A stretch of DNA of 64,000 nucleotides from Candidatus Wolfebacteria bacterium GW2011_GWE2_44_13 (GCA_001000675.1 LCHW01000002.1:69310-133309); one strand, 5' to 3'; numbered from the stretch's first letter, positions 2,986 to 57,319 are shown. The notes: generated by a model not told the origin, from the letters alone. Made by a program: numbers and translations.

Positions 2986-3525
2986 TTAAGAAGCGCGATT
3001 TTCTCGTTTAGTAAAAATATCAGCGCACTCCGCGCTCCCAAAGTCAACAAACGAATCAAACATTGCATGAAGTTTTAGGTCTGTGTCGCGAAGAAAGGAA
3101 GCTCCTTCAACTCGAACGCCTTGTTCGTGAAGATATTGTACGAGTGGTATGTAATCACCGTCTCCGCCGACAAGTATAGCAACGTCAATTCTAGAGGCGG
3201 TTCTAACCGCTGCAATTGCAAGGTCAAGATCGCAATTGCCCTTCATTACGCCTCCCGAATGTGCTTTAAGGGGCTTAGTGATTACTTGAAAGCCAATGTT
3301 GTGCATTACTTCAAAGAAAGCATTTTTAGAATCATCTTCCAGAGAGACATCGAAAAATTGTGCAGAGTGTAATGTCCTCTTTCCCAGTAATTTTGCAAGA
3401 ATTTTGCGGTAGTTAATATGTCCTGCGGGATAATTGCGCTTGGTGCTCTTGTAGACGTTTGCTGCGTCAACAAAGATAGCAACTCTAGCAAGTTCAGTTC
3501 GGTGAATGTAGGCTTGTGAGCTCAT
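2986..3525 (-). CDS. NYN-domain / LabA-like (PIN-like) protein.
   Basis: VAIFVDAANVY..., ILVGGDGDYIPLV and DLDLAIAAV motifs are typical of the NYN/LabA family. Start set at internal ATG 3525 with a GAGGAG RBS. The promoter motif lies inside the longer ORF-track extension. Confidence 0.65.
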   Translation of the reverse strand: MSSQAYIHRTELARVAIFVDAANVYKSTKRNYPAGHINYRKILAKLLGKRTLHSAQFFDVSLEDDSKNAFFEVMHNIGFQVITKPLKAHSGGVMKGNCDLDLAIAAVRTASRIDVAILVGGDGDYIPLVQYLHEQGVRVEGASFLRDTDLKLHAMFDSFVDFGSAECADIFTKRENRAS

Positions 3526-3589
3526 TCTAAAATACTCCTCTAATGTGGTGTATATCCCGAGGGCATTCGGGTTGGGAAAGAACATCCTC

Positions 3590-3618
3590 ACTATGATGAA
3601 TATTGGCAGGGATGTCAA
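3590..3618 (-). promoter_or_regulatory. Putative promoter of the NYN gene. Minus strand reads TTGACATCCCTGCC (-35), 17 bp spacer, then CATAGT (-10).
   Basis: Same extended -35 as the rpsT promoter, seen directly. Confidence 0.4.
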
Positions 3619-3665
3619 TATAAACAAAAAGGCCGCAACTTAGGGGTCGCGGCCCGAGAACACGC

Positions 3666-4031
3666 TCAATGATTGGTCTTGCAGATAGTGCGCATGAGTG
3701 TGGTTGTAATAAGCTGGTAGTCGAGTAACCACCACCCGCCTCCAGCTAATCCGCCAAAGAGGATGTCGCCAGAGAAATAGCCGACAGTGATGCCAATAGC
3801 AACGTCTCCAACAAAGAGGAGGAGGAAGTCAAAATGGATACAAAGAAAGAGATGCTTAAAGAACAGGAGTGAGATCTTCTTATTATGGCGATAAGCCTCA
3901 AAAAGGCAGAGGGCAAAACGAACGCCAAGAATAATAAGAGCGACGGCACAGATCCACTGAAAGATATGGAAATGTAATGCGATTGCGGAGCCAGTAAGGC
4001 TTGCCGCACATACAGCCAGAAATAGCTTCAC
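3666..4031 (-). CDS. Hypothetical polytopic small membrane protein.
   Basis: 121 aa with 3-4 hydrophobic segments. A hairpin terminator sits at 3628..3660 on the minus strand. Confidence 0.4.
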   Translation of the reverse strand: MKLFLAVCAASLTGSAIALHFHIFQWICAVALIILGVRFALCLFEAYRHNKKISLLFFKHLFLCIHFDFLLLFVGDVAIGITVGYFSGDILFGGLAGGGWWLLDYQLITTTLMRTICKTNH

Positions 4032-4088
4032 GGCAAACCCTCCTATAGTGGTAGCGTTGGATTAAAGGAATCTGATTTAAGTACATCA

Positions 4089-4104
4089 AATATGCCGGCA
4101 TATT
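4089..4104. promoter_or_regulatory. Perfect 16 bp palindrome AATATGCCGGCATATT in the divergent promoter region upstream of ruvA. Candidate operator.
   Basis: Exact reverse-complement symmetry, overlapping a TTGACA on the minus strand. Confidence 0.3.
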
Positions 4105-4149
4105 GTCAATGGCTTTCTATGCAGTAGGGGATTAGGTATACTTAAAAAA

Positions 4150-4731
4150 ATGATCTACTCGCTAAAAGGAAACGTTATCGTAAAAAAAGGGACATGGGCG
4201 GTTATTGAAACGAACGGGATTGGGTTTCGGGTTGCTTTGGCGAGCCGTGATAGCGCTCAGCTTCCAGCTATTGGATCTATTGCGCAAGTATTTTGTTCGA
4301 TGGCTGTTAAAAAAGATGGCATAGAATTGTATGGGTTTTTAAGTGAGCGCGATCTGGACATGTTCGATTTACTAACCACTATTAGTGGGGTTGGTCCTAA
4401 AACAGCACAAACTATTCTTGGCGCAGTGGGGACGGATATGTTATTGGCGACCGTTGAGCAGAAGAAGACAGACACATTAGCAGAATTTCCAGGAATCGGA
4501 AAAAAGAAAGCGGAACGTATTATTTTAGAATTACGAGATAAGATTAAAAAAATGGATGCTGGAGAAGCGATTGAGTTTCACGAGGGAGATAAGGATGTAA
4601 AAGATGCGTTGAAGCAAATTGGATATAAACAAGGAGAAATAGATGAGGCGCTTAAGGCATTGCCGAGTGATTTACAGGGAACGGAGGTGCGCTTAAAAGC
4701 AGCGCTCAAAATAATAGGAAAGCATAAATAA
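4150..4731 (+). CDS. ruvA: Holliday junction DNA helicase subunit RuvA.
   Basis: N-terminal OB domain (IYSLKGNVI...GIGFRV), two HhH motifs (ISGVGPKTAQTIL; FPGIGKKKAERIILEL) and the C-terminal domain III. Confidence 0.88.
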   Translation: MIYSLKGNVIVKKGTWAVIETNGIGFRVALASRDSAQLPAIGSIAQVFCSMAVKKDGIELYGFLSERDLDMFDLLTTISGVGPKTAQTILGAVGTDMLLATVEQKKTDTLAEFPGIGKKKAERIILELRDKIKKMDAGEAIEFHEGDKDVKDALKQIGYKQGEIDEALKALPSDLQGTEVRLKAALKIIGKHK

Positions 4732-15268: not shown

Positions 15269-15954
15269 AAGAACGGCACGCAAAACTGCAAAAAGATTTT
15301 GAGGCACTTATATCTAAGGAGCAGGTATTTCATGCATATGTTTTTTTTGGCGAAGATGAACAGGCGATGGTGGATTTTTCTCGCCAACTTGGACATAGGC
15401 TCGAACACGGAACGTTTGAAAGCGAGGGGAAGTTTTTAAACGATTTTTTGTACGTTGAGCCGGTTGAAAAAGAAAGTATCGGTATCGATGCAGTACGCGC
15501 AGTACAAGAATTTTTATACCGAAAGCCGATTGTTTCAAAAAAACGAACAGCGGTTATTTGTCCTGCAGATGCTATTACCGACGAAGGACAAAGTGCATTA
15601 CTCAAGATAATCGAAGAGCCTCCCAAGGATGCGCTTATTATATTAATCGCACATGCAGCAGACAGCGTAATACAAACAATTAGTTCGCGCGTGCACGAAG
15701 TATATATTCCATCGGACATAGGGAAAAAAGAAGGGGAAGATTTTTTCTCAGAAACGCTTGGGGTGTTGCGAAAGCATCTGGTAAAAAACAGTGCGCTCGC
15801 ACATGAAATTATCAGAAGAAAGATGGCTATGGATCGCTATAATGTAAACAAGCCACTACAAATGCGTTTACTCGAAGGGTATGCAGAGCAATACGGAATA
15901 GCGAAAAAGCCAAAGGCAGTTGTAGAAAAAAGGAGAACAAGAAAGAAGGCATAA
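15265..15954 (+). CDS. holB: DNA polymerase III delta'-like clamp-loader subunit, without a Walker A motif.
   Basis: AAA+-like layout (HAYVFFGEDEQ...; ALLKIIEEPP...; SRV). 229 aa. Confidence 0.5.
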   Translation: MKERHAKLQKDFEALISKEQVFHAYVFFGEDEQAMVDFSRQLGHRLEHGTFESEGKFLNDFLYVEPVEKESIGIDAVRAVQEFLYRKPIVSKKRTAVICPADAITDEGQSALLKIIEEPPKDALIILIAHAADSVIQTISSRVHEVYIPSDIGKKEGEDFFSETLGVLRKHLVKNSALAHEIIRRKMAMDRYNVNKPLQMRLLEGYAEQYGIAKKPKAVVEKRRTRKKA

Positions 15955-17094: not shown

Positions 17095-18081
17095 TCACGA
17101 GGCCGGCGTGATGCCGGCGATCTCGCACAGCTTAGTTGTGTGAGATGCTAAAATGCTTTCAATCAACGCTCTCTGCGGGTCATTGTCGCTAAGTCCGGAG
17201 AGTGTGGTTAAAAGATATTCGGGAGAGCGCTCGGCGTATTTTTCGCCAAGCAGGACGAGAAACCATTCAGCTGCGTCGCTTAGCTGCTGACGACTAGCCA
17301 CAACAAGCCAGTAGCTAATTGAGGAGGAAGTGAAGTTGAACTGTCTGATTTTATTTGCGCAGGCCTCACGGATTTGCTCGAATTCCGTCTCCATCAGGAG
17401 ATGGAAAAAGATATCGCTTTGAACATCGACGATTGCATTGATGAAATCAAACTCATGCTGCGGGTCACCCTTAAATTGGGAAAATATCCAGCGCAAGTCA
17501 TCCACATCGATACCCTGGACTCTTCGCGCAGCAGTTTTTGCGAAGAGCAGCATCGAAGCATGATCCCTCGACTGTCGCATTAAATCCTGGATTTTGCTGA
17601 ATGTAAGCGACTGACGAACAATTCCTTCCGCAAGGAGCGGCGCAAGTTCGGGGTTGGCGGGGGCAAAGAACGCTCTGATAAGCGCGCCTTGGCCATCAGG
17701 GGCCTGAGCACATGCTTCGATAATGTAGCACTGGACGTCTTGGTTGACAGCATACTTGAGGTAGTCAGTGAGCCTACCCATGAGGTAGTCGTGGTTCCGC
17801 ACCATTGCACCGCTCAGTATGAGTTGATAATCGGCGTAATGCTTATCGGTGTACAGGGAGAATATGTGTTCGGGTGTAAAATCTTTGTGCCCGAATGCTA
17901 CTCCGAGTGCAGTGCGGACCTGTTTAGGGTCGGTGAGCATGGAAATAATCCAGAGCAAGTCGTCCAGTGGCTCGATACTGCGAAGCGCATTCCGCACCTG
18001 TTTTCTGGCAAGTTTGCCGAGGTTGGTAAGAACTATTAAAGCCATGTACCGCTGAATCTGGGAATGTTCGGCCGTGGTCAT
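17095..18081 (-). CDS. Hypothetical protein, GC-rich and probably alpha-helical.
   Basis: 328 aa ORF with GC markedly above neighbours. Bidirectional terminator at 17053..17083. Confidence 0.5.
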   Translation of the reverse strand: MTTAEHSQIQRYMALIVLTNLGKLARKQVRNALRSIEPLDDLLWIISMLTDPKQVRTALGVAFGHKDFTPEHIFSLYTDKHYADYQLILSGAMVRNHDYLMGRLTDYLKYAVNQDVQCYIIEACAQAPDGQGALIRAFFAPANPELAPLLAEGIVRQSLTFSKIQDLMRQSRDHASMLLFAKTAARRVQGIDVDDLRWIFSQFKGDPQHEFDFINAIVDVQSDIFFHLLMETEFEQIREACANKIRQFNFTSSSISYWLVVASRQQLSDAAEWFLVLLGEKYAERSPEYLLTTLSGLSDNDPQRALIESILASHTTKLCEIAGITPAS

Positions 18082-33254: not shown

Positions 33255-33683
33255 ATGGAGACGCCGAAGAGAAAGAGAATTCTATTGATTGAGGGGACAG
33301 AATTACCGAGCAATACGGTGATTGAGCTGGTAAAGGCGGGGTACGTGCTCGAGTGGAATCTGCTCGACGAAACTACACCCGGGCGAATCAAACAGCAGTA
33401 TTCTCTGTACGATGTAATTGTCATCGGAGGAAGCGTAGAACGAGAAAAGCAGCACGAGCTGTTGCGAGCAATCTCGATTGTCGAGGGCGATGCCGTGAGA
33501 TTGCTTGTACCCGTGGTTTGCGTGGACCTTCGCGTTCCAAGGATAATTCGGCTCCAGGACCTCGTGTTGGTGCCGGATCAATTCGACGCCATTGCCGATG
33601 GAGTCAAAAGGGCGTTAGCCGATTTGGCTGGCGTAATGCGGCGCATGATGGAGCGCACTGCTGCGCGGGAGGCGAAGACATGA
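33255..33683 (+). CDS. Stand-alone pseudo-receiver (REC-fold) protein, array member 1. Phospho-acceptor positions degenerate.
   Basis: REC-like beta/alpha pattern: RILLIEG (beta1, DD replaced by EG), YDVIVIGG (beta3, Asp replaced by Gly), LLVPVVCVD (beta4). GC-rich. The overlapping frame 33353.. is Arg-rich off-frame. Confidence 0.55.
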   Translation: METPKRKRILLIEGTELPSNTVIELVKAGYVLEWNLLDETTPGRIKQQYSLYDVIVIGGSVEREKQHELLRAISIVEGDAVRLLVPVVCVDLRVPRIIRLQDLVLVPDQFDAIADGVKRALADLAGVMRRMMERTAAREAKT

Positions 33684-34024
33684 TAAAAAAGAAAACGCCC
33701 ACCATACCCGTATTGCTCGTCGGCAGCCGGGTGCTCGCAGAAATGTACAGGGAGCTGCTTGAAGTGCACAGCATTCAAGCCGATTGGGTGCGAAGCGATT
33801 TGACGGCATTTTCGATGCTTGAAATCGAAGGCGAGTACGACATTATCGTCGTGGACGGGTCGGCAATCTGCGGAGACTTCCTCGTCTTCATAGAAAGGTT
33901 GTACGAGGAAGTGCCTCCCTGGACATGGGTCGTTGGGTCGACGCAGATAAATGATGACACGCGTACGCAGCTTGTGCAGATGATAGTTGAAGATCTCGCT
34001 GCGCGAGGAAAAGTAATGCCATAG
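33680..34024 (+). CDS. Stand-alone REC-fold protein, array member 2 (retains Asp in the beta3 position).
   Basis: PVLLVGS (beta1), YDIIVVDGS (beta3), ATGA overlap with member 1, terminator gtggcggaccgaggtccgccac plus T-run at 34036..34066. Confidence 0.5.
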   Translation: MIKKKTPTIPVLLVGSRVLAEMYRELLEVHSIQADWVRSDLTAFSMLEIEGEYDIIVVDGSAICGDFLVFIERLYEEVPPWTWVVGSTQINDDTRTQLVQMIVEDLAARGKVMP

Positions 34025-34204
34025 TGCGAGCTACGAGTGGCGGACCGAGGTCCGCCACTTTTTTGTAAAAAGAAAATAATATGCAGCTTAAAAGATGCGT
34101 AAGATAGAAAAGTAGTATTCGATTGACAAAAGCTGACTGAAGCTGTATTAGATAATTAGTAAATAAAATCTCCGCACTACGCGGATCATAGAAAGGAGCA
34201 ACCC

Positions 34205-34555
34205 ATGAGGCGACTGCATATTTTGTTGATAACGAATCTGGAATGTGAGACGGAAATTGCCCAGCACCTACTTAAGGCGATGGGGCATGATCTTGATGAG
34301 GTGTATGATGCGATATGGGCGATTGAAAAAATTTCCCATAAAACATTTGACGCCATTATCGTTGCAGAATTTTCAGTAGAAGAGGCGGAGCTGATCGTGT
34401 GCGATATCAGGATGCAAACACAACAAAACATGTATAGTATTATCCTTAACAAGGAGGCTCAGCACAAAGAGCATAATGACTATGCTGATGAAGTGATTCC
34501 GTTAACTCGCCCGGCGCTGCGGGACGCATTGGCGCGCAAATTTAGCGGAGTGTAG
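34205..34555 (+). CDS. Stand-alone pseudo-receiver protein, array member 3.
   Basis: HILLITN (beta1), FDAIIVAEF (beta3, Asp replaced by Ala/Glu). Own TTGACA promoter. Terminator gtggcgagcccaggctcgccac at 34558..34587. Confidence 0.5.
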   Translation: MRRLHILLITNLECETEIAQHLLKAMGHDLDEVYDAIWAIEKISHKTFDAIIVAEFSVEEAELIVCDIRMQTQQNMYSIILNKEAQHKEHNDYADEVIPLTRPALRDALARKFSGV

Positions 34556-34663
34556 TAAGTGGCGAGCCCAGGCTCGCCACTTTTTTGTAGAAAATTTGAC
34601 CAACGCTTAGCTTTGTGTTATGAGTAATACAGTTCAAGTAAAATTCAATACAGAAGGGGAAGG

Positions 34664-35107
34664 GTGAAAATGAAAATTTTAGTTGTGGATGACGCGATGG
34701 CGAGTAAATACGTGGAAGCACTCATACTTGCCGGATACATGGTTGAGAGTGTACCAAGCGGAGAACAGGCATTGCGCAAAATTATGCAAGAGGGAGGGTA
34801 CGATCTGATGATTGTTACCCCGCGCATCTCTGACATGGAACCGGTTAAGCTTGTGAAGAAATGCCTAATGCCTTTACGAAGCAGGATGAAAACCATCGTG
34901 CCAATCATTTTGGCAGAGCGGCATGGCGACCGAATTACGCAAAATTGGTTTGTGATTGCTCCTGATGAAGTTGAGTCAGTGAAGCAAGCGATGAGAGATT
35001 GCCTTAACTTGCATCCGCCACAAAAAGAGAAGCCGGTGGAACAGCGAGAAGGGTTCTTTCATTGCTGGTTTAAAGATGTTTGGTGGCAACTGGGAATATC
35101 CTGGTAA
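34664..35107 (+). CDS. Stand-alone pseudo-receiver protein, array member 4 (keeps the beta1 Asp-Asp pair but lacks the phospho-acceptor Asp).
   Basis: KILVVDDAMAS (beta1), YDLMIVTPRISDMEPVKLVKK (beta3-alpha3, Asp replaced by Thr). Terminator gcggcgagcttaggctcgccg at 35130..35159. Confidence 0.55.
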   Translation: MKMKILVVDDAMASKYVEALILAGYMVESVPSGEQALRKIMQEGGYDLMIVTPRISDMEPVKLVKKCLMPLRSRMKTIVPIILAERHGDRITQNWFVIAPDEVESVKQAMRDCLNLHPPQKEKPVEQREGFFHCWFKDVWWQLGISW

Positions 35108-35257
35108 CCCCTCCTCCTTAATAAGAATGTGCGGCGAGCTTAGGCTCGCCGTTTTTTTAATAAATAAATCAGAAGGCTAACTTGACCGGATAAGAGATGA
35201 CGTGGTATGTATAAGATAGTTATTCAATTAAATAAATAGAGGGAAGGAGCTGAGCGG

Positions 35258-35659
35258 ATGCGTGCAAACGTGAAAAAGCCAAGGATCCTTATGGTGTGTC
35301 GAGGTATACGAGGATCACGACACAGGGAACATGCAACAGACCTGCGTAAGCGCGGATATATTGTCGAGTTTGTGGGTGATGTTAATAATCCGGAGGACCT
35401 ACTTGCAAGTGATTGGTATGAGGCAATCATAATCAATCGCGAAGTGGGATCCTTGTCTTGCAGAAAGGGTGATGGGTATGCATTTGCGAGGGAGGTTCGG
35501 GAAATCTATCCAGCGTTACCCATAATCGTAATTGATCGTAACTTAGCAAAAACACACGTCTACTCAGAAGACACACTGATGCAGATTGTGTGGGATGAGG
35601 CGGGATGGATTACAAATGCATTAGCAAAAATATTTCACCAAGAACCTTCTTTTGCATAA
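35258..35659 (+). CDS. Stand-alone pseudo-receiver protein, array member 5.
   Basis: RILMVCRG (beta1), YEAIIINRE...GDGYAFAREVREIYPALPIIVID (Asp replaced by Asn, then alpha3-beta4). GGAAGGAG RBS. Confidence 0.55.
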   Translation: MRANVKKPRILMVCRGIRGSRHREHATDLRKRGYIVEFVGDVNNPEDLLASDWYEAIIINREVGSLSCRKGDGYAFAREVREIYPALPIIVIDRNLAKTHVYSEDTLMQIVWDEAGWITNALAKIFHQEPSFA

Positions 35660-35684
35660 CATCGGTACGAAAGGATCTGAACGA

Positions 35685-36125
35685 ATGAGTGCGAGCGTGA
35701 AAAAGCCAAAGATTCTAATAGTATATCCAGTTCTGACGGAAGCCGAGAATGATCGATTCTGTATTGATTTGCGAGTTTTGGGGTACGACACGTACCTTAT
35801 GACAAGCGTGAGAGGTCTCGACAGAGATCTCGGCGCAACGAGATACGCCGCAGTTATTATTAGCAAGGCGATGCGCGACCCGCACCATGCGGGTAGCGAT
35901 GGCTATTCACTGGCCAGTCGCATCAAGAAAAGCAAACTTGCTATGCCGGTGATCGTGTTGGATCCGACGTGCGGGAATGCAGAAGATTGTATGCGGCTAG
36001 ACACGGGAGTGCGGGTCATCCCTGACACAGCGAGGAACCTCGAATACGTACTTGCAGAGTTATTCTACCCCGAGCGGGTAGAGCGTTTACGCATACATGC
36101 GGGCGCGATAGTCAAAGAGGGATAG
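35685..36125 (+). CDS. Stand-alone pseudo-receiver protein, array member 6 (closest paralogue of member 5).
   Basis: MSASVKKPKILIVYPVL resembles MRANVKKPRILMVCRGI. YAAVIISKAM...GSDGYSLASRIKKSKLAMPVIVLD (Asp replaced by Ser). Terminator at 36130..36163. Confidence 0.55.
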   Translation: MSASVKKPKILIVYPVLTEAENDRFCIDLRVLGYDTYLMTSVRGLDRDLGATRYAAVIISKAMRDPHHAGSDGYSLASRIKKSKLAMPVIVLDPTCGNAEDCMRLDTGVRVIPDTARNLEYVLAELFYPERVERLRIHAGAIVKEG

Positions 36126-36160: not shown

Positions 36161-38362
36161 TTATATCGTAGCGAGTGTTGGTGAATCAAACTTCACAGAC
36201 AATAATTTGGAAGTACCATCGTCATTCATGGTCACGCCGTAGAGTACGTCAGCTGTTTCCATAACGGTACGGTTATGCGTAACGACGATGAACTGCACTT
36301 TGTGTGCGAACTCTTTGATAAGGTGTGCAAATCGTTCCGAATTGCGTTCATCAAGCGGAGCGTCAATTTCATCAAGTACGAGAAATGGGGGAGGGCTTAC
36401 AGAAATAAGTGCAAAGAGTGCTGCGATAGAAACAAGACTCTTTTCTCCACCCGAGAGCACGTCAAGGCTGTTGATGCGTTTCTTCGGGAGGCTGAGTTCT
36501 ATTTCGATACCCGATTGCAATGGCTCTTCCGCCTGTTTCTGTTCTTCAAATTCAGACGTTTCTCCGCTTAGCTCTTCGACAATATGTTCAATGCTATGTG
36601 TCTTGATTTTCATCTTTGCCGAGCCACCGCCAAACATAAGACGAAAGAAGTGATTGAATTGATCGTTAATGTCTTTGAAGGCAGCATTGAATTTTCCGGT
36701 TACATCGCGCTTCAACTCTTCAACAAGCTCATTCAAGTCGGAAGATGCTTTTTCTAAATCGGCCGATTGAGTTACGAGATGTGCATGATGGGTCTCCACT
36801 TCGTTTGCTTCGGTGATAAGCGATTCATCTACGTCACCGATAGAGAGAAGTTCGGCACGGAGACGAAAAATCTGACGCTCTAAATCGGACAGTTGAAATT
36901 CAGAAAGAGATTCAGTGGAGCGAAGTGAGTCAAGCGCGGATTCTTCGTGTTCGTTTCGCACCCATTCAGCACGTAAATCAGTAAGACGGATAGAAACTTT
37001 TTCATTTTCAAAGGTAAGGTGCTGCACGCGATTTTCTATGGCACGAATTTCTTCGCGTTTAGCCTCTACAAGACTAAATGCTTCACGAAATCGTTGGTTA
37101 AAATCCGTAAGGCCTTGCGATAAAGATTCCTGCGCTTCCCTTACAAACTTAAGATTTTCATCAAGTCCAGCAAGAGCAAAAAGGAGATTATTTTTATCAT
37201 GTTCAATGTCTGCTTGTTCTGCGGAATAGTCAGGCTTTGGCAAATCAAGTTTTGGAGGGTTGAGATACGAATCTATTTTTGTGATAAGGGATTTAATTGT
37301 ATGGGAAAGTTGCGCAACATCATCTGATGAAGCATTTTCTTCAAGTGCATGCTTGATTTGGCGAATCAACGCGAGCATTTCTTCTTTGCGATAAACAACG
37401 CCTTGGTCCGATGTGGTGTCAGTAGAAAATTCAAGCTTCGCTTCGAGGCGGGCAACATCTTTTTGTAATTGAAAGCGCTTTGCGAGTAATGCGGTTTCCT
37501 CTGCCTTTAGCGTCGCAGCTTCCGCGTGTTGATCTTTCGTTGATTCAATTGTTTCGAGGGATTGTTGTAATTGTGAGAGTTCTTGTTGCTTGCGCGTGAT
37601 GTCTTCTTCTAACGCAAGAAGACTTGCTTTGTTTTGGCTTAGCTTGTCTTTAAGCGTAGAAACTTTTGTTCCGAAATACGATTGTTCTGCTGCAATTAAT
37701 TCATCGCGTTTTTGGTCGCGCGTTTGATATTTGGCAACTTGTCGCTTTAACATACGTAAGCGAGGAGTAACTTCTTCTATCATAATGCGGATCTTTTCAA
37801 GATTAAGCGCGGTGTTTTTTAGTTTTCGTTCAGCCTCAAGCTTTTTTAGTTGGTACTCTTTTAGGCCAAGGATTTCCTCAATCATAAAGCGACGCTCTTG
37901 GGGAGTTGCACGCACAAAAAGATCGCTCGAGCCCTGGTTGATGATCGTAAGGCCGCGCGTGCCCAAACGAGAGCGGGCAAAGAAGTCGATAATATCTTTT
38001 GCGCGCACATCAGATTTGTTAAGCCCATAGGTTGAGTTTCCATCGCGAGAGATTTCGCGGCTTACGGTAACCTCATCAAAATCAAGCGGGAAAAATTTAC
38101 CGCTGTTATCGAAGTTGATGCTTACTTGTGCCATGCCAGAGCGGGCGCGCTTAGGAGTGCCGGCAAAAATAAGATCTTCCGCTTTGCCACCGCGGAGATT
38201 CTTTGCCTCGCGTTCGCCGAGAATCCAACGAATCGCATCGATGACGTTTGACTTGCCGCTACCGTTTGGGCCTACGATGGCAGTAATGCCTCCGGGGAAT
38301 TCCAATACGGTTTTTTGTGCGAACGATTTGAATCCGTTCAGTTCGAGTGATTTCAGCAGCAT
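36161..38362 (-). CDS. smc: SMC-family chromosome segregation ATPase, short form (733 aa).
   Basis: N-terminal Walker A (GPNGSGKSN), long coiled-coil, C-terminal signature LSGGEKSL and Walker B/D-loop (FLVLDEIDAPLD). A hinge region is not obvious. Confidence 0.8.
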   Translation of the reverse strand: MLLKSLELNGFKSFAQKTVLEFPGGITAIVGPNGSGKSNVIDAIRWILGEREAKNLRGGKAEDLIFAGTPKRARSGMAQVSINFDNSGKFFPLDFDEVTVSREISRDGNSTYGLNKSDVRAKDIIDFFARSRLGTRGLTIINQGSSDLFVRATPQERRFMIEEILGLKEYQLKKLEAERKLKNTALNLEKIRIMIEEVTPRLRMLKRQVAKYQTRDQKRDELIAAEQSYFGTKVSTLKDKLSQNKASLLALEEDITRKQQELSQLQQSLETIESTKDQHAEAATLKAEETALLAKRFQLQKDVARLEAKLEFSTDTTSDQGVVYRKEEMLALIRQIKHALEENASSDDVAQLSHTIKSLITKIDSYLNPPKLDLPKPDYSAEQADIEHDKNNLLFALAGLDENLKFVREAQESLSQGLTDFNQRFREAFSLVEAKREEIRAIENRVQHLTFENEKVSIRLTDLRAEWVRNEHEESALDSLRSTESLSEFQLSDLERQIFRLRAELLSIGDVDESLITEANEVETHHAHLVTQSADLEKASSDLNELVEELKRDVTGKFNAAFKDINDQFNHFFRLMFGGGSAKMKIKTHSIEHIVEELSGETSEFEEQKQAEEPLQSGIEIELSLPKKRINSLDVLSGGEKSLVSIAALFALISVSPPPFLVLDEIDAPLDERNSERFAHLIKEFAHKVQFIVVTHNRTVMETADVLYGVTMNDDGTSKLLSVKFDSPTLATI

Positions 38363-38410
38363 GATGTTGTTACTATACTATAAAAAATGGCGTATTTCCA
38401 TGGGGAAAAC

Positions 38411-38578
38411 GAGGGAGGGTGTCATTCCCGCGGCCTGCTCCGTGTAAGAATAAATACTCCGCAGGCATTTCGGCACGTTGCACGCTTGCTTCGCTCGCTA
38501 GCAACGCCAAGTCAAGGCGGGAATCCATCCCCGCCAGTAAAATACTGGATTCCCGCCTCCGCGGGAATGACAGTAGGC
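38411..38578. repeat. Cluster of ATTCCC-N8-GGGAAT-type palindromic repeats: half-site at 38421..38433, IR GGCGGGAATCC...GGATTCCCGCC at 38517..38558, full unit at 38548..38574.
   Basis: Inverted repeats seen directly. Same family as 39098..39121, 39138..39160 and 40796..40821. Confidence 0.7.
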
Positions 38579-38707
38579 GGGGAGTTGGCAATATAGGAGG
38601 TTGACAGATTTGCAATATTATAGTAATGTATATAAATACAAATAAGGGTGGTAACGGCATTGTGCCAATAGGACTTTTCAAACCGAATAGTGAAAGGAAA
38701 AAAGAAG

Positions 38708-39043
38708 ATGGATAGCTATACGAAAAAGGTATTGCTGGTGATTGCACTTGCATTCGTGGTAGCAATAGCTTATCGGGTTGCTATTATGAAACCCGAAGCA
38801 GATGTGAAGGTCCAGCCGTATCCGGCGACAGTCCTGACGGATATGCAGATTGACAGGTACGGAAACATTATGTATCCCCTGTACTTTTGCATCGACGGAA
38901 GGTGTCGCACTCGAGTGACGTGCGGGAATGAATCCACCCCGCTATTCGAAAAAGGGAACAGGGTTACAGTGTGGCTTAAAACCAGCCCGCTGGAAGGGTC
39001 TGACTTGCTTTGCCTTGATAAGGTCGAGCTCGTCGGCCGATAA
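38708..39043 (+). CDS. Small membrane-anchored/secreted Cys-containing protein, paralogue A.
   Basis: N-terminal anchor LLVIALAFVVAIAYR. YPLYFCIDGRCRTRVTCGNESTPLFEKGNRVTVWLKTS aligns with paralogue B. Conserved TTGACAGATTTGCA promoter and 5'UTR. Terminator at 39058..39092. Confidence 0.6.
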   Translation: MDSYTKKVLLVIALAFVVAIAYRVAIMKPEADVKVQPYPATVLTDMQIDRYGNIMYPLYFCIDGRCRTRVTCGNESTPLFEKGNRVTVWLKTSPLEGSDLLCLDKVELVGR

Positions 39044-39097
39044 CTATTTCCGAAAAGTTCGTCGGGGCGCCACAAGGCGCCCCATTTTTTGTCCCGT

Positions 39098-39160
39098 GTC
39101 ATTCCCGCGGAGGCGGGAATCTAGTATTCAGCCAAATGGATTCCCACCTGTGCTGGAATG
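39098..39160. repeat. ATTCCC-N8-GGGAAT palindromic repeat (gtcattcccgcggaggcgggaatc) plus a degenerate partner copy.
   Basis: Seen directly. Same arrangement as 38517..38574. Confidence 0.7.
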
Positions 39161-39285
39161 ATAATACAAAAAGAAGAGAGTAATGAGAGATTGACAGATT
39201 TGCATTATTGATGTAATACATATTTATACAAATAGGCTAATGGCATCGTGCCAATAGGACATTTAAAAATCGAGAGGAATTCGAG

Positions 39286-39642
39286 ATGAGCGGTCGTGTG
39301 AAAACGTTTTTGTTAATAACTGCGCTGTTCTTGGTATTGGCGATAGCGTATCGCGATACCAGCCTCAAGCCCAAAGGAAGCTCTATTCACGAATACACGG
39401 TAACGATTATGAACAACGCGCAGATTGTAGATTTTTTCAAGGATAAGCCGTATCTGGCGTACCCTGTCTATGTGTGCGGAGACAGCAAAGAGTGTGCTAT
39501 GCGAATCCTTCCTGCTCGCGCAGTTCCGACTCCGCTCTATCAGGGGAATAAAATTAGTATCAGGACGAGCGAAGATATTAGCCAGACCGAAGGGCTGCTA
39601 TCGGTAGAGGACATTACACTGGTGATTATTGACACCCAGTAA
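39286..39642 (+). CDS. Small membrane-anchored/secreted Cys-containing protein, paralogue B.
   Basis: LLITALFLVLAIAYR anchor and YPVYVCGDSKECAMRILPARAVPTPLYQGNKISIRTS. Same promoter/5'UTR module as paralogue A. Terminator at 39643..39680. Confidence 0.6.
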   Translation: MSGRVKTFLLITALFLVLAIAYRDTSLKPKGSSIHEYTVTIMNNAQIVDFFKDKPYLAYPVYVCGDSKECAMRILPARAVPTPLYQGNKISIRTSEDISQTEGLLSVEDITLVIIDTQ

Positions 39643-39744
39643 AGTGAGGAGGCGCTGCAAGGCGCCTCATTTTTTACGGGGTTGCATTTATATTGCGAAA
39701 GGAGTATTACATATAGCTGTACAGCACATTAACAAAAGGCAAAA

Positions 39745-40177
39745 ATGCCTACTATGGGCCTTGGTGGGCCGTCGAACATACACCGCGCTTTCTTGTGTGA
39801 GAGCAGATGGAGAAAAAGTGGAACACATTATTGTGAGTGCAGTGGGGAATCTTTCGAGGCAATGCACATTTTCGTTTGTGCTGGTTGGCGTACATGGAAC
39901 AACGCCATGGAAGCCGCCGTACACAAAGGCATATGCTGTCATAATCGTACGGGTAAGCGGGCCTCCGAATGAGGTCGCCGCATTTTCAAAAGCGCTAAAA
40001 AGAGAAGCGAGCCGAACAAAGTCCTGTATTACGGTTGGGGCTGACGGTCGCTTCGACGCAGAAAGCGCTGAGAAAACGTACAGCGTCGAAATACTCGTGC
40101 CTGATAACTTTGGAACTCCACAGGAGTTCCTCAGTGGTAAGGCGAGAAAAATCGAAGACGCTTGCAAGAAACCGTAA
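39745..40177 (+). pseudogene. Frameshifted paralogue of 40300..40755. The conserved N-terminal peptide MPTMGLGGPSNIHRAF is in one frame. The homologous body continues in the -1/+2 frame to 40177.
   Basis: N-terminal 16 codons align with MPYLGLGGPSNMHRPF of the intact paralogue, mostly by synonymous differences. After ~39800 the frame with body similarity (LVGVHG..W...KAYAVIIVRVS vs LLGSHEW..KSDMVTVILAFSRS) is the other frame, which has no ATG. Terminator at 40195..40232. Confidence 0.5.
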
Positions 40178-40299
40178 AGGTTTTTGTAAGCATACAGAAT
40201 AAGCCGCGTCCTTGTGACGCGGCCTTTTTTAACTTGATAATTATTTTATGAAGTGGTATGACGTAGATAGTTACCTTATCAAAAGAAGCAAAGGCAGTA

Positions 40300-40755
40300 A
40301 TGCCTTATCTGGGCCTCGGTGGGCCGTCTAATATGCACCGACCCTTCGTAAGAAGGAGAAGAGGAGTTGCTATGACTGAGAAGAGAAGGCCAGGAAAGAA
40401 AGAGCGATTGGAAATGCCCTACAAGAGAATTTTTATCGAGGGCAACGAAGTGGGGCAGCTCTATTTACTAGGGTCTCATGAATGGGACGACAAGTCGGAT
40501 ATGGTCACGGTAATCCTTGCGTTTTCGAGAAGTAAATACGAAGGATATTTCATGGCGCTTATTCTCAGCGAAAATTTCTTTTTTATGAACGGAAGAACCA
40601 TTGAGGACTTCACGGGTAAAAGGAAGATGATGACTGGGACGTTGCGACAATTAGTCCCGCGGCAGGGCGACCAGATAGGGTTTATAGCAAATATTGCCGA
40701 GCGCATAGGGAAGGTCTTGGGAACGCACCTTCCGAGCCTCGAAGAGATGGGATAG
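40300..40755 (+). CDS. Hypothetical protein with conserved N-terminal peptide MPYLGLGGPSNMHRPF (intact paralogue).
   Basis: 151 aa. AAAGG RBS before ATG. Terminator at 40760..40795. Confidence 0.55.
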   Translation: MPYLGLGGPSNMHRPFVRRRRGVAMTEKRRPGKKERLEMPYKRIFIEGNEVGQLYLLGSHEWDDKSDMVTVILAFSRSKYEGYFMALILSENFFFMNGRTIEDFTGKRKMMTGTLRQLVPRQGDQIGFIANIAERIGKVLGTHLPSLEEMG

Positions 40756-40795
40756 TGCAAAAAGCCGCGAGTAATCGCGGCCTTTTTTTGTATTG

Positions 40796-40821
40796 TCATT
40801 CCCGCGGAGGCGGGAATGACA
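40796..40821. repeat. Perfect ATTCCC-N8-GGGAAT palindrome gtcattcccgcggaggcgggaatgac at the 3' end of rnc.
   Basis: Seen directly. Confidence 0.75.
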
Positions 40822-40823
40822 GA

Positions 40824-41531
40824 TTACACCTCAAACTTTTTCAGCGCATTCTTTGCTGATTCAATTTCTGCCTCTTGTTTGGAGAATCCTTTTCCGCGAG
40901 CAGCAAATGTTTCACCAAAGTACACACCAATTTCAAAAATTTTATTATGATCAGGGCCTTCTTCACCGAGTACGACGTAGCGAGGGGTTACCTTATGTTT
41001 TTCTTGCACAATTTCTTGCAGATGACTTTTTGGATCTTTGTGAAGATTGTTTGCAACAATGTCTGCTGAGTGACTAAGTACTTGGTCGGTTATAAATTTA
41101 GCTGCGGCAGCATATCCTTGATCAAGATAAATAGCACCGATAAGGGATTCAAACGCGTTTGCTAAGATAACTTCTTTTGCACGAGCAGTATCCTTTGCTT
41201 CTCCGCGGGAAAGTAAAATAGAGCTGTGCATTTTAATACTATCAGCGATACGTGCCAAAATTTGGTAGTTTACAAGCGCTGCGCGAATACTCGTGAGCTC
41301 TCCCTCAGGAGATTGAGGGTAGGTATGGAAAAGATATTCCGTTACGACAAGTTCAAGTACTGCATCACCTAAAAACTCGAGCCGTTCATTATGAGGAACA
41401 CCCCATTTAGGATTTTCATTAAGATACGAACGATGCGTAAGTGCTTCTTTAAGTAAGTCGAGATTAGTAAATTGAATCCCGATTGTTTGCTGTATTTTTT
41501 CGAAGTGATTCACGGTTGAATCATTATTCAA
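40824..41531 (-). CDS. rnc: Ribonuclease III.
   Basis: RNase III signature ERLEFLGDAVLELVVTEYLF and a C-terminal dsRBD. Confidence 0.9.
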   Translation of the reverse strand: MNNDSTVNHFEKIQQTIGIQFTNLDLLKEALTHRSYLNENPKWGVPHNERLEFLGDAVLELVVTEYLFHTYPQSPEGELTSIRAALVNYQILARIADSIKMHSSILLSRGEAKDTARAKEVILANAFESLIGAIYLDQGYAAAAKFITDQVLSHSADIVANNLHKDPKSHLQEIVQEKHKVTPRYVVLGEEGPDHNKIFEIGVYFGETFAARGKGFSKQEAEIESAKNALKKFEV

Positions 41532-42394: not shown

Positions 42395-42520
42395 GGATAA
42401 TGATGTCTAGTGAATAAATGAGCCGTTAGGCCCGTATCTAGAGAATAATAGATAAATATGGGATAAAAGTCAATGGATAGAATAAAACAAAGCCCCGACG
42501 GAAGTCGGGGTAAAAAAGGG

Positions 42521-42868
42521 CTACAACGGGAGGCGCGAAGGGCCACGGCGCATAAAGGAGTCCTGCAAACAGTATGCGTACATGCAAATGCATGACACAA
42601 AGACGTAAAGGTTTCCAAACCTATGGAATCCGGGCGTTTCAGCAACAAACCACGCCTGCGCCGCGAAGAAAAGAGAAATCCACGCAACGAGAAGGAAATT
42701 TCCACCCGAATGGTGAATCGCATAGTAGCCTTCAGGAACTCGTTTACCCTGACGGTATCGAGAGTCGCAGAACCAAAGGCAACAAACAACTAAAGGGAAA
42801 AACCAGGTAAGAGCGTAGACGAATAGTAAAGCAAACAAATAGATGCTGCTAAGCGTAAGTTCGGACAT
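42521..42868 (-). CDS. Hypothetical small membrane protein.
   Basis: 115 aa with 3 hydrophobic segments. AAAGGGG RBS. Minus-strand hairpin terminator at 42483..42520. Confidence 0.45.
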   Translation of the reverse strand: MSELTLSSIYLFALLFVYALTWFFPLVVCCLWFCDSRYRQGKRVPEGYYAIHHSGGNFLLVAWISLFFAAQAWFVAETPGFHRFGNLYVFVSCICMYAYCLQDSFMRRGPSRLPL

Positions 42869-43037
42869 AGCGCAAACCCCTTTGTAAGATGTTTTTAGAA
42901 TAGTGAACTGGTAAAATAGTGCAATAAAAGAAGGGCTGTGTCAATGGATAGGGTTGACATATATAGCGGGAAAAGGTTATATGAACTCAGTAGCTTTAGT
43001 TGTATAAGAGATCCTCTAACCGAGAAGGAGTGTGAAT

Positions 43038-55167: not shown

Positions 55168-55231
55168 AAGTAATTTAAAATAGCCCGTCAGCATGCTGAC
55201 GGGCTATTTTTATTGTGATATACTTATACAC

Positions 55232-57319
55232 ATGAATACCCGCACAAGAAAGATTGTATATACATCGACTGGTATTGTAATAATAGTAGTAGGAGTTGTC
55301 GTTACACAACAAGGGTTTGCATGGACAAATCCAGCGAGCAACCCACCACTCGGGACGAACACCATAAACATTTCAGGAAGTAAAGTTGGGATAGGAACAA
55401 CAAATCCATTCGGAGTATTTGAATCGTTTACAAATCTCGATATCCCGGCTGTTCGAGGTAATAGCACGGGTGCTTCGGGCGTGGGGGTAAATGGAGAGAG
55501 TACGGCATCCGGAGCGGGAGCGGGCGTTTCGGCAAAGGGATGGAGGGGTGTATATGCGGAGTCAACTGATTTAGTTAATGGATGGGCAGGATATTTTCTC
55601 GGGAGGGGATATTTTAGTGGCAACGTCGGCGTTGGAACGGCAACACTTGATACAAACTATCGCATTACAACGAGCGGGGGAGGTGTAAAAGCAGGGAACA
55701 GTAGTGCAACCCAACCAGCAGGGTATTTTAGTAACGCGGGAGGAGGTCCTGCTATTACTGTGGGAACAGGGGGTATTACACTAGGCGGAGTAAACCAAAC
55801 CGCATGGCCAGTGAGTGCGAGTCAGTGGACGACTTCAGGAGATGATATCTACAAAGCAAATATAGGGAACGTTGGAATCGGAAAAACAAACCCACAAAAT
55901 GCCCTGCATATTTTCACAACGTTACCTGCGGGAGGTCTTGATATTGACGGGACCGCATCTAATTCTATTGTTCGATTTAAGAACAACGGGACATCAAAGG
56001 CGTTTGTTGGCATTGCTAATAGCGCGGGGGCTATTATAAATGGTTCTACTGCTAATGATACCGCAATTAGATTTGATGGTGGTAATTTATTATTTGGATA
56101 TGGAGCAACTGAAGTGGCACGCATAACATCAGGGGGTGATATGGGAATTGGAACGACAGCACCCGAAGCAAAATTGCATGTCGCGGGGAATATTGTTGTA
56201 AACGGAGTAAATATCGGAACAGGGAGTGGTAATATTTCTTCAAACACTGCCGTAGGACTCTATAGCTTATTTGCGAACAGTGGTGGCTATAGTAATAGTG
56301 CATTTGGATCGTCTGCTCTGTTTTCCAATACGTCGGGTATGTATAATACCGCGCTTGGAGGAGGTGCGTTATATTCAAACACCACGGGAGGTTATAATAC
56401 TGCAGTTGGACCAGATACTCTTCGTTTTAATACAACAGGAACATACAATACTGGAGTTGGTTTGGAAGTACTCACGAGCAATACAATTGGCACGGATAAT
56501 ACTGCGATTGGATCGCGTACGCTTCTTTTAAATACTTCCGGAAACCTAAATACCGCGGTTGGTTCAAGAGCACTCTATGCTAATACAGGGAGCTGGAACA
56601 CCGCGGTCGGTGGGTACGCTTTGGACTCGAATACTACGGGTAATTATAATGTTGCGAGCGGATATAATGCACTTACTGCGAATACATTAGGCAGCTTAAA
56701 TACGGCAGTTGGTCCTGGTGCATTGCAATCTAGCATGACTGGGTTAAGTAATACTGCGATTGGACAGAACTCAAATTCAAGCAATACTACGGGGTCATAT
56801 AACGTTTCACTTGGCGCAAGTTCACTTATGTCCAATAGTACCGGATCCAATAATACCGCAGTTGGTTATTTGGCAAACGTGGCGTCTGGTGCTCTTACGA
56901 ATGCAACGGCAATTGGTTACAATGCAATCGTTAACGCAAGTAATAAAGTTCGCATTGGTGGTACGGCAGTAACAGTTATCGAGGGCCAAGTGGGTTGGTC
57001 TATTGGCTCGGATATTCGCCTAAAGCACGACGTCGTAGATAGCGACCTCGGACTAGGATTTATCAATAAATTGCGTCCCGTTTCCTATAAGTTAAATAAT
57101 GGAGACGGCGGATTAAACTACGGATTTATTGCGCAAGAAGTTGAGGCTGCAGTAGGAAAGAAAACGAATATTGTCATGACAGACAATACTCCTGAGATGA
57201 TGAAGACAATGCGCTACACAGACTTGATTGCCCCAATGGTAAAAGCAATTCAGGAACAGCAATTGCAAATAAAAGAGCAAAAAGAGCGAATAGAAAAACT
57301 CGAAGCGCTCATAAAATAA
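55232..57319 (+). CDS. Membrane-anchored fibre protein with YadA-head/Hep_Hag-like NTAVG repeats and a C-terminal peptidase S74 intramolecular-chaperone domain (phage tail-fibre-like).
   Basis: N-terminal TM helix (IVYTSTGIVIIVVGVVV). More than 20 repeats of ..NTAxG..AL..NT.G. C-terminal SDIRLKHDV...GFIAQEVEAAV...DLIAPMVKAIQEQ typical of the S74 IMC domain. Confidence 0.65.
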   Translation: MNTRTRKIVYTSTGIVIIVVGVVVTQQGFAWTNPASNPPLGTNTINISGSKVGIGTTNPFGVFESFTNLDIPAVRGNSTGASGVGVNGESTASGAGAGVSAKGWRGVYAESTDLVNGWAGYFLGRGYFSGNVGVGTATLDTNYRITTSGGGVKAGNSSATQPAGYFSNAGGGPAITVGTGGITLGGVNQTAWPVSASQWTTSGDDIYKANIGNVGIGKTNPQNALHIFTTLPAGGLDIDGTASNSIVRFKNNGTSKAFVGIANSAGAIINGSTANDTAIRFDGGNLLFGYGATEVARITSGGDMGIGTTAPEAKLHVAGNIVVNGVNIGTGSGNISSNTAVGLYSLFANSGGYSNSAFGSSALFSNTSGMYNTALGGGALYSNTTGGYNTAVGPDTLRFNTTGTYNTGVGLEVLTSNTIGTDNTAIGSRTLLLNTSGNLNTAVGSRALYANTGSWNTAVGGYALDSNTTGNYNVASGYNALTANTLGSLNTAVGPGALQSSMTGLSNTAIGQNSNSSNTTGSYNVSLGASSLMSNSTGSNNTAVGYLANVASGALTNATAIGYNAIVNASNKVRIGGTAVTVIEGQVGWSIGSDIRLKHDVVDSDLGLGFINKLRPVSYKLNNGDGGLNYGFIAQEVEAAVGKKTNIVMTDNTPEMMKTMRYTDLIAPMVKAIQEQQLQIKEQKERIEKLEALIK

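Follow-up and report, generated by a model that had tools for sequence, protein, structure and literature searches.

What are the palindromic repeats in the interval between rnc and smc of Candidatus (Ca.) Wolfebacteria bacterium GW2011_GWE2_44_13, and what has brought repeats and small genes together there? The stretch of this genome that was analysed comprises 64,000 nt (LCHW01000002.1:69310-133309; hereafter the window, with positions counted from its first letter), and its host is a bacterium of the Candidate Phyla Radiation (CPR), Ca. Wolfebacteria. The rnc-smc interval (38363-40823, 2461 nt) is flanked by an SMC-like gene and rnc, both on the minus strand, and is filled by four small open reading frames (ORFs) on the same strand as each other (A to D). 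To judge from their sequence, the palindromes are members of the dRS3/NTS lineage, an already known kind of hairpin repeat, found here in a CPR bacterium. The explanation that we consider probable is that these NTS/SRM hairpin repeats are non-coding passengers in a recombination or insertion hotspot between rnc and smc, which also carries lineage-specific small genes. What is most novel at the locus is a leader RNA with covariation support that precedes a hypervariable orphan gene, along with the repeated use of the rnc-smc gap for insertions.

Identity and structure of the palindromic repeats

The 28-nt Neisseria Transformation Sequence (NTS; consensus CGTCATTCCCGCGMAVGCGGGAATCYRG) encompasses dRS3 and forms a hairpin (PMC11893778, Nat Commun 2025). 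SsnA, a GIY-YIG nuclease of 94 aa, binds and cuts NTS only as single-stranded DNA (ssDNA), and in Neisseria Ssn cutting of the ssDNA hairpin lowers the integration of transforming DNA that bears NTS (PMC11893778). The GTC before the palindrome is critical for cleavage and the C after it is critical for binding, while the identity of the loop is dispensable for cleavage and loop extensions are tolerated (PMC11893778). In Neisseria, some well-known genes for virulence determinants have NTS copies clustered around them; NTS occurs far outside Neisseria, and NTS-like "SRM" repeats and ssn homologs co-occur over many phyla, often in the order NTS-ssn-NTS (PMC11893778). A cognate ssn gene encodes a single GIY-YIG domain of the cd10448 type and typically has the repeat on its flanks. 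The CPR terms that we searched for are not named in the main text of that paper.

In the window, ATTCCC-N8-GGGAAT occurs exactly three times (38549, 39101 and 40798) against none expected from 100 dinucleotide-preserving shuffles of the 64 kb, which rules out a chance origin. A perfect copy of the 26-mer GTCATTCCCGCGGAGGCGGGAATGAC lies at 40795-40820, and the sites at 38546-38571 (minus strand) and 39098-39123 (plus strand) agree with it at 23 of 26 positions. Extended to NTS, the units at 39097-39124 (plus) and 38545-38572 (minus) agree with the consensus at 26 of 28 positions, the mismatches being the first base and one base of the loop, where the authors of the consensus allow one mismatch. 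Two half sites (38420-38433 and 38515-38527) and one degenerate copy (39137-39162) complete the set. The initial annotation of this DNA had described five copies or half-copies, two of them in larger inverted repeats, and this agrees with what we found: five units, arranged as two inverted doublets (R1 and R2, with inner spacers of 18 and 12 nt, respectively) and one singlet (R3). A further, diverged copy lies near pilB, so within the window the repeat is not confined to the rnc-smc interval.

38420-38572, no strand assigned: R1, inverted NTS doublet with split forward unit, 18-nt spacer and intact reverse NTS (38545-38572)
39097-39162, no strand assigned: R2, inverted NTS doublet with forward NTS (39097-39124), 12-nt spacer and degenerate reverse NTS (39137-39162)
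40795-40820, no strand assigned: R3, perfect 26-nt palindrome GTCATTCCCGCGGAGGCGGGAATGAC, 3 nt from the rnc stop codon
30351-30378, minus strand: diverged NTS copy TGTCATTCCGGCGCAGGTCGGAATCCAG downstream of pilB and outside the island, matching NTS at 24 of 28 positions

Folded as ssDNA with DNA parameters, the copies form stem-loops with z from -2.8 to -7.8: R1 reaches -39.9 kcal/mol (z -4.9), R2 -15.7 kcal/mol (z -3.8), R3 -14.9 kcal/mol (z -7.8), and even the pilB copy keeps its hairpin (-6.8 kcal/mol, z -2.8). The oriented flanks GTC...C are kept by the pilB copy and by two units of the island, the reverse one of R1 and the forward one of R2. R1 has an inner pair of 13-nt arms 18 nt apart and an outer pair of 14-nt arms 125 nt apart, and the inverted structure of R2 covers 65 nt with a spacer of 13 nt; the halves of the R1 forward NTS are parted by an 81-nt insert (38434-38514) that matched nothing in any fetched locus. 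The loop extensions tolerated in NTS bear on this insert because it sits exactly at the loop. The simplest account of R3 would be a former doublet that lost the DNA between its two GCGGGAAT direct repeats. The likeness to the Neisseria dRS3 family pointed out in the initial annotation is borne out by the three exact cores and the 26/28 matches to NTS, which encompasses dRS3 (PMC11893778). It had been treated as an oddity outside Neisseria; such a repeat is instead to be expected, because the family is pan-bacterial.

Sequence copies of this kind can disturb assembly. Contigs of other assemblies of the same strain end at 38544, 38602, 40782 and 40829, inside or beside R1 and R3, as is expected for multi-copy sequence, and the ORF list of the region contains spurious translations of the repeats such as SFPRRRES and IPASAGMT. 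DNTT01000008.1 (GCA_003508115.1) and contigs of several groundwater metagenomes show 100% identity to the window; A and B also occur on a 789-kb Wolfebacteria contig, and B is recorded under Ca. Wolfebacteria bacterium GW2011_GWC2_39_22. An assembly artefact or chimera is ruled out, since at least four independent assemblies are 100% identical across R2, R3 and the genes.

Could the hairpins be host-selected elements that act in place on RNA or transcription, as auxiliary terminators, protectors of mRNA 3' ends or insulators, and not be mobile at all? R2 and R3 follow intrinsic terminators immediately, R3 sits just past the rnc stop codon, the stems are stable and G+C-rich, and the terminator scan itself calls the NTS stem at 38549-38568. 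Each gene, however, already has a canonical terminator. The palindrome is absent from the orthologous position of R3 downstream of D in the related locus L203, and the copy upstream of pilB in another relative, L129, is absent from the orthologous site in the window; moreover, this L129 copy lies inside the pilB 5' untranslated region (UTR) and not at a 3' end. The same 31-mer in contigs of 31-72% GC (see below) fits a mobile or enzyme-constrained element, not local selection. We therefore hold selection in place to be quite unlikely. The comparison with REP or NIME elements made in the initial annotation was right about position, with R2 and R3 directly after terminators, and did not extend to arrays of the NIME type, of which there are none here.

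pilB is the type IV pilus/type II secretion system ATPase gene. L129 has NTS copies on both sides of it (15549-15574 and 17351-17376), the one in the 5' UTR lying between the -10 box and the start codon, and the downstream copies of L129 and the window are positioned differently relative to the terminator.

A sub-threshold Rfam match to the Francisella small RNA (sRNA) FtrB overlaps R2 (39074-39221; 20.6 bits against a gathering score of 66), and a paper on a Francisella sRNA also contains the core sequence of the repeat. This hints that FtrB could include an NTS-like hairpin.

Spread of the repeats and the GIY-YIG genes beside some of them

The pattern GTCATTCCCGC-N4-GCGGGAAT was found in at least 120 IMG/VR contigs, a count to be read as a lower bound, and among these are Neisseria-type arrays (L020, L026). 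Exact copies of the 31-mer GTCATTCCCGCGGAGGCGGGAATCYAGTATT were found in 67 metagenome contigs (31-72% GC), most of which have the same doublet form of forward unit, spacer and reverse unit. As an observation in its own right, an identical 31-nt sequence (GTCATTCCCGCGGAGGCGGGAATCCAGTATT; L136-L202) in contigs that range from 31% to 72% GC is unusually strict conservation for a non-coding repeat.

In four loci (L050, L111, L011 and L184) a small GIY-YIG gene stands directly beside the motif. A sister genome links this arrangement to the locus studied here: the rnc-smc interval of L212, whose Rnc is 86% identical to that of the window, holds a 96-aa GIY-YIG gene (PF01541, 2e-16) whose product shares 55% identity (E=3e-35) with the protein encoded beside NTS in L050. 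On one side of this gene stands TGTCATTCCCGTGAAAACGGGAATCCAG and on the other the same sequence inverted, with NTS at 2254-2281 and 2584-2611, which makes it an NTS-ssn-NTS module. The gene is about 50 nt away from the start of smc, within the stretch that separates smc from the first gene of the island, which is where R1 lies in the window; in L207 an NTS doublet adjoins smc at the same place. GIY-YIG is the only type of enzyme gene bracketed by NTS copies in this clade.

These observations also bear on the possibility that a RAYT (REP-associated Y1 tyrosine transposase) mobilises the repeats, which would then be REPINs unrelated to Ssn. In favour of RAYT mobilisation, ATTCCCGCGCAGGCGGGAATC is the Neisseria REPIN seed tied to Group 2 RAYTs (Bertels & Rainey); R1 and R2, like most of the 67 metagenome instances, are two inverted REP units less than 130 bp apart; and a Y1_Tnp gene is present in the rnc-smc interval of L222. 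The L222 enzyme, however, is an ordinary IS200-type transposase with hairpins of its own and no NTS-like sequence nearby, and used as a tblastn query it gave no matches in the window or in about 190 NTS-bearing loci, although an IS200-type query may miss divergent RAYTs. Pfam detects no Y1_Tnp in the window, and the enzyme genes adjacent to the motif in four loci and bracketed by NTS in this clade are of the GIY-YIG type. RAYT mobilisation thus appears unlikely.

Several points weigh against assigning the window's repeats to an NTS/SRM-Ssn system. R3 lacks the C after the palindrome, having GGGAAT-G on both strands, and a canonical Ssn may not bind it. The published SRM pattern HGTCWY..YYVSBRH..WNVSBRG..RNCYNB has no match in the window, failing at one loop position (G, not H); against this failure, loop identity is reported to be dispensable (PMC11893778). 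No ssn, RAYT, transposase or integrase gene was found in the 64 kb, the part of the genome that the search covered, so that a cognate enzyme in this organism is unproven. Copies are sparse, at two loci in 64 kb, which does not show a massive expansion of the REP kind, and several close relatives hold no copies in 8-17 kb; dRS3 in Neisseria is present in hundreds of copies per genome. Finally, the same Neisseria core has also been ascribed to Group 2 RAYT transposases (Bertels & Rainey), so that the mobilising enzyme is disputed.

The rnc-smc interval as an insertion hotspot

The gene order nusB-rnc-smc-rpsP is kept across the relatives of this genome, while the gap between rnc and smc varies. 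Among complete genomes, CP011209.1 (Ca. Wolfebacteria GW2011_GWB1_47_1) is the nearest, its Rnc being 88% and its SMC 84% identical. Compared locus by locus (Rnc identity to the window, length of the rnc-smc gap, content), the interval is as follows.

L130: Rnc 62%, gap 86 nt, empty
L214: Rnc 71%, gap 75 nt, empty
L129: Rnc 88%, gap 603 nt, one gene
L206: Rnc 85%, gap 705 nt, one gene
L209 and L210: Rnc 86%, gap 795 nt, one or two genes
L211: Rnc 90%, gap 840 nt, two genes
L207: Rnc 84%, gap 880 nt, one gene and an NTS doublet adjoining smc
L212: Rnc 86%, gap 1211 nt, three genes, including one GIY-YIG gene
L204: Rnc 87%, gap 2030 nt, three genes, including one of 383 aa
Window: Rnc 100%, gap 2461 nt, genes A, B, C and D and five NTS units

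The interval is hypervariable: it measures 75-86 nt in L214 and L130, as against nine close relatives that have 603-2461 nt and differing gene sets. Each related genome examined has a different content there, and in more distant Wolfebacteria the interval is empty, in agreement with the accessory, hypervariable island proposed in the initial annotation. Identical content in all relatives, which would have refuted that proposal, was clearly not observed, and the reading as a variable island stands. The initial annotation also likened the layout to islands of niche- or host-interaction genes; such a role is conjectural here, A, B and D being orphan proteins with almost no homologs. The rnc-smc interval is a repeatedly used landing site whose elements are gained and lost within the clade; for the NTS elements this follows from presence/absence differences in L207, L129 and L203. 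The GC content of the island (45-50%) compared with the window mean (44%) shows no sharp break and is uninformative on foreign origin, and no tRNA or known non-coding RNA was found at the island edges.

In L222 the rnc-smc gap holds two small genes and an IS200-like Y1 transposase. The latter (3701-4138, 145 aa) is of the IS200 type, with an HUH motif and flanking hairpins of its own, and lies between a D-like gene and rnc. Unrelated mobile elements therefore also land in this interval.

Genes A and B

The island has a strong intrinsic terminator after each of its four ORFs, called at 39064-83, 39649-68, 40203-23 and 40764-81; overall, the scan found nine terminator-like sites against 2.7 expected. 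The initial annotation had given each gene its own promoter and terminator. The terminators are confirmed by the scan, while the promoters were assigned by eye and a strict consensus scan calls none of them. It had also described two pairs of small paralogous genes, of which the A/B pair is upheld (BLASTP, 30% identity, E=1e-13) and the C/D pair is not (see below). The features of the A/B half are as follows.

38601-38629, plus strand: putative A promoter TTGACA-17-TAATGT, assigned by eye, in a block 81% identical to one upstream of B
38708-39043, plus strand: gene A, 111 aa, N-terminal transmembrane helix and small beta-barrel, paralog of B
39064-39090, plus strand: intrinsic terminator of gene A, from the scan, eight G-C pairs and a T run
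39191-39219, plus strand: putative B promoter TTGACA-17-TAATAC, assigned by eye, in direct repeat with the A promoter
39286-39642, plus strand: gene B, 118 aa, membrane-anchored paralog of A
39649-39675, plus strand: intrinsic terminator of gene B, from the terminator scan

The promoter and UTR blocks of A and B are 81-87% identical, compared with 30% for the proteins. The direct repeats shared by the two genes are spaced 585-591 nt apart, which shows tandem duplication of a unit of about 590 nt that includes a reverse repeat unit, promoter, 5' UTR, gene and terminator.

Could the island be an integron-like or site-specific cassette array, with the palindromes as recombination sites that bound the cassettes? 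Its small genes all run in the same direction, a 32-nt inverted repeat shared by R1 and R2 (97% complementary) brackets gene A, and the interval differs among relatives. There is, however, no integrase or recombinase in the 64 kb, the B-C and C-D gaps hold no repeat, every gene comes with a promoter and a terminator where cassettes would be promoterless, the repeat lacks the R'/R'' organisation of attC sites, and the A/B pair is accounted for by the tandem duplication. A cassette array is therefore very improbable.

A and B have no relatives beyond themselves among 5.8 billion clustered proteins. Searches of Pfam and NCBIfam gave no match to any of A to D, and a word-indexed search for homologs of the four returned only the proteins themselves and one relative. 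An AlphaFold (AF2) model of A (pLDDT 75) has a helix at residues 3-26 followed by strands that form a small beta-barrel; it resembles the OB-folds of PriB, SSB and the membrane-anchored CcmE weakly (E about 5e-3, TM 0.38-0.46).

Genes C and D and their structured leader

In the other half of the island, two genes whose products are not detectably homologous share a 73-nt 5' leader at 74% identity.

39682-39710, plus strand: putative C promoter TTGCAT-17-TATTAC, assigned by eye; the same type precedes the rnc-adjacent gene of relatives
39735-39817, plus strand: leader copy 1, before C; P1 39738-39749, P2a GGCC 39757-60/39767-70, P2 39761-66/39781-86, P3 39788-92/39799-803, the last just before the Shine-Dalgarno sequence
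39818-40177, plus strand: gene C, 119 aa from GTG at 39818, orphan protein
40203-40230, plus strand: intrinsic terminator of gene C, from the terminator scan
40234-40262, plus strand: putative D promoter TTGATA-17-TATGAC with upstream TG, assigned by eye, conserved in relatives
40290-40371, plus strand: leader copy 2, before D; P1 40293-40304, P2 40316-21/40336-41, P3 40343-47/40352-56, the last with a GUAA loop and overlapping the Shine-Dalgarno sequence
40372-40755, plus strand: gene D, 127 aa, convergent with rnc, positionally conserved and rapidly diverging
40764-40788, no strand assigned: bidirectional terminator common to D and rnc, from the scan, with an A run and a T run flanking the stem

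C and D as paralogous proteins are ruled out (BLASTP E=0.5; hhalign probability of 0.1 against a profile of the D superfamily). What has been duplicated is the leader.

The leader, about 85 nt long, is found ahead of the rnc-adjacent gene in each of the 10 related loci with such a gene. It occurs once per relative and nowhere else in the 1.83 Mb of fetched sequence, and in several relatives it is intercistronic, between a gene for a 60-70-aa membrane protein and a D-like gene. Compensatory changes support its helices. P1 is a hairpin of the form GGCA-GNAA-UGCC, which appears as GGCG...CGCC in some genomes and is replaced by a different hairpin in L211. P2a is an invariant GGCC/GGCC helix whose loop is the 5' strand of P2. 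P2 itself exists in four fully complementary versions (UCGGUG/CACCGA, UCAGCG/CGCUGA, UCGGCA/UGCCGA and UCAGUG/CACUGA), and in alignment A4 both partners vary at three of the six P2 pairs (AU:5/GC:4, CG:6/UA:3 and GC:7/AU:2). The A4 structure, which comprises P2a, P2 and another two positions, has 88.6% of its cells paired, and with the partners slid the figure is 27-53%. None of the shuffles attained the covariation score of A4, although with nine sequences the controls cannot fully exclude phylogenetic effects. P3 mostly has a GNRA tetraloop and overlaps the Shine-Dalgarno sequence; its compensatory versions (CCUUC/GAAGG, CUCUU/GAGAG, CCCUA/UAGGG and CCUC/GAGG) come from single-sequence folds, as MAFFT misaligns P3.

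The leaders gave no gathering-level match to Rfam in the window and no match at E<=5, and searches of viral contigs with the leader core returned only chance matches in high-GC coding sequence. A conserved upstream peptide (MPxxGLGGPSN) was considered and ruled out: the nucleotide sequence is conserved between D and L129 despite an indel that throws the peptide out of frame, so the leader is conserved as nucleotides, not as peptide. We read it as a structured cis-regulatory RNA in which P3 would gate translation and P2a and P2 would compete; whether it is a genuine new class of cis-regulatory RNA seems to us evenly balanced.

The proteins downstream of the leader fall into three subfamilies that are mutually 16-22% identical, compared with 84-92% for the flanking core proteins. 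Counterparts of D at the same position in relatives are 16-67% identical and have the N-terminal motif KI.V.G.E.G.L.LLG in common. A full HMMER scan of 1.84 billion representative proteins found only four clusters of the D family, and the AF2 model of D is unusable (pLDDT 46).

The gene for a 60-70-aa hydrophobic protein just upstream of the leader and D-like gene, in an apparent operon with them, was seen in several relatives (L204 10409-10621, L210 1441-1623, L211 2204-2413 and L212 1973-2173), and these proteins mostly have a strongly basic C-terminal tail. The window has the membrane-anchored A and B (111-118 aa) where relatives have this hydrophobic protein.

Model and significance

By sequence, the palindromes of the window are members of the pan-bacterial NTS/SRM family, extended dRS3 sequences that serve as the ssDNA recognition and cleavage site of small GIY-YIG Ssn nucleases. 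The copies here take the form of REPIN-like inverted doublets (R1 and R2) and a singlet (R3); in the explanation that we favour, they ride as passengers in the gaps between genes, either right behind terminators or where promoters diverge. The cargo of the hotspot consists of the tandem-duplicated A/B pair, the fast-evolving D behind its leader, and a second copy of the leader fused to the unrelated ORF C. These copies are presumably targets, present or past, of a cognate Ssn in this genome, and the doublets may be "empty" derivatives of an NTS-ssn-NTS module, much as miniature inverted-repeat transposable elements are of insertion sequences. The hairpins could either accumulate where insertions are harmless or actively promote rearrangement, two options that are not separable here.

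The rnc-smc interval could also be a dedicated diversification locus, in which a conserved promoter and a hitherto undescribed three-helix leader drive a small protein that, among near-identical genomes, is replaced or diverges past recognition, and NTS and Ssn supply the ssDNA breaks or the recombination substrates by which cassettes are duplicated and swapped. Such breaks could act during the natural transformation on which CPR bacteria are thought to depend, and the P2a/P2 switch would possibly gate the hairpin that sequesters the Shine-Dalgarno sequence. We consider this improbable.

Repeats carried as passengers in a hotspot, the explanation preferred above, would place in CPR bacteria an Ssn/NTS system characterised in Neisseria only in 2025, with nuclease gene and repeats landing repeatedly in one intergenic site. 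It would also offer annotators an explanation for sequence that breaks metagenome assemblies and yields spurious ORFs. The identical 31-mer at 31-72% GC poses the question of whether the sequence is horizontally mobile or held constant by the specificity of an enzyme, and a leader with compensatory support before an unusually fast-evolving gene offers a lead that can be tested, in a group for which next to nothing is known of regulation.

Other features of the window

The core genes that flank the island are the following, with nusB just beyond rnc.

36161-38362, minus strand: SMC-like gene, left core flank, 733 aa; Pfam SMC_N 3e-68 over residues 3-718
40824-41513 (or to 41531), minus strand: rnc (RNase III), right core flank; Pfam Ribonucleas_3_3 1e-38 and dsrm

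The product of the SMC-like gene is 84% identical to its CP011209 ortholog. It matches SMC_N over its full length and gives no match to the hinge domain, and its length of 724-733 aa is kept throughout the clade.

The interval between smc and rpsP (33255-36125) is also expanded, with 3 kb and six small genes on the same strand, where L129 has about 1 kb and L130 only 85 nt. Paralogs occur among these small genes (28% identity, E=3e-14), and their number and content differ in every relative. One has a weak match to a response-regulator receiver domain (E=3.7e-4, below cutoff). Between rpmF (L32) and an ORF of 133 aa lie about 640 nt (42395-43037) with no convincing gene, for which assemblies call differing ORFs; Rfam gave no match to this segment, the best being RsmY at 15.8 bits (E=0.4). 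At 55193-57319, in an otherwise housekeeping region, a 708-aa protein contains Peptidase_S74 (intramolecular chaperone of endosialidase, 1e-11), a domain typical of phage tail-spike or fibre proteins. In L214, where the island is absent, a reverse transcriptase gene (RVT_1, 364 aa; 3351-4445) lies between an NYN-domain gene and ruvB.

Comparison with known systems

Unlike integrons, the locus described here has neither an intI integrase nor attC sites bounding promoterless cassettes. Leaders that sequester the Shine-Dalgarno sequence (riboswitches, thermometers and protein-binding leaders) are similar to the C/D leader, which has three helices with compensatory support, a last hairpin that overlaps the ribosome-binding site, and a P2a/P2 pair that could compete and so act as a switch. 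The C/D leader differs from them in matching no Rfam family and in having been seen in only one narrow Wolfebacteria clade; the hypervariable protein downstream of it would be unusual for a metabolite riboswitch.

Like REPIN-RAYT systems and the repetitive extragenic palindromic (REP) and BIME elements of enterobacteria and pseudomonads, the repeats of the window are extragenic inverted doublets, often beside terminators and patchy among relatives. They differ in having no RAYT in the window and no 5' tetranucleotide of the GTAG type, and the enzyme gene bracketed in this clade is GIY-YIG, not a Y1 HUH transposase. With the dRS3 and NIME elements of Neisseria they share the identical 20-bp core ATTCCC-N8-GGGAAT beside variable genes. 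Arrays of RS units of 50-150 bp flanked by dRS3 are absent from the window, where the spacers measure 12-18 nt, the host is not Neisseria, and no link to filamentous-phage integration was seen.

The closest counterpart is the NTS/SRM-Ssn system. The window departs from it in its CPR host, in its loop GGAG, which lies outside the published M-A-V loop and SRM pattern, in its few copies, in the lack of an ssn gene in the window, in the 81-nt loop insert of R1 and in the missing 3' C of R3. The likeness extends to units that match NTS at 26 of 28 positions including the GTC...C flanks, to hairpins in ssDNA, to intergenic clustering around particular genes, to an NTS-ssn-NTS module at the same locus in a sister genome, and to a family that is documented in many phyla.

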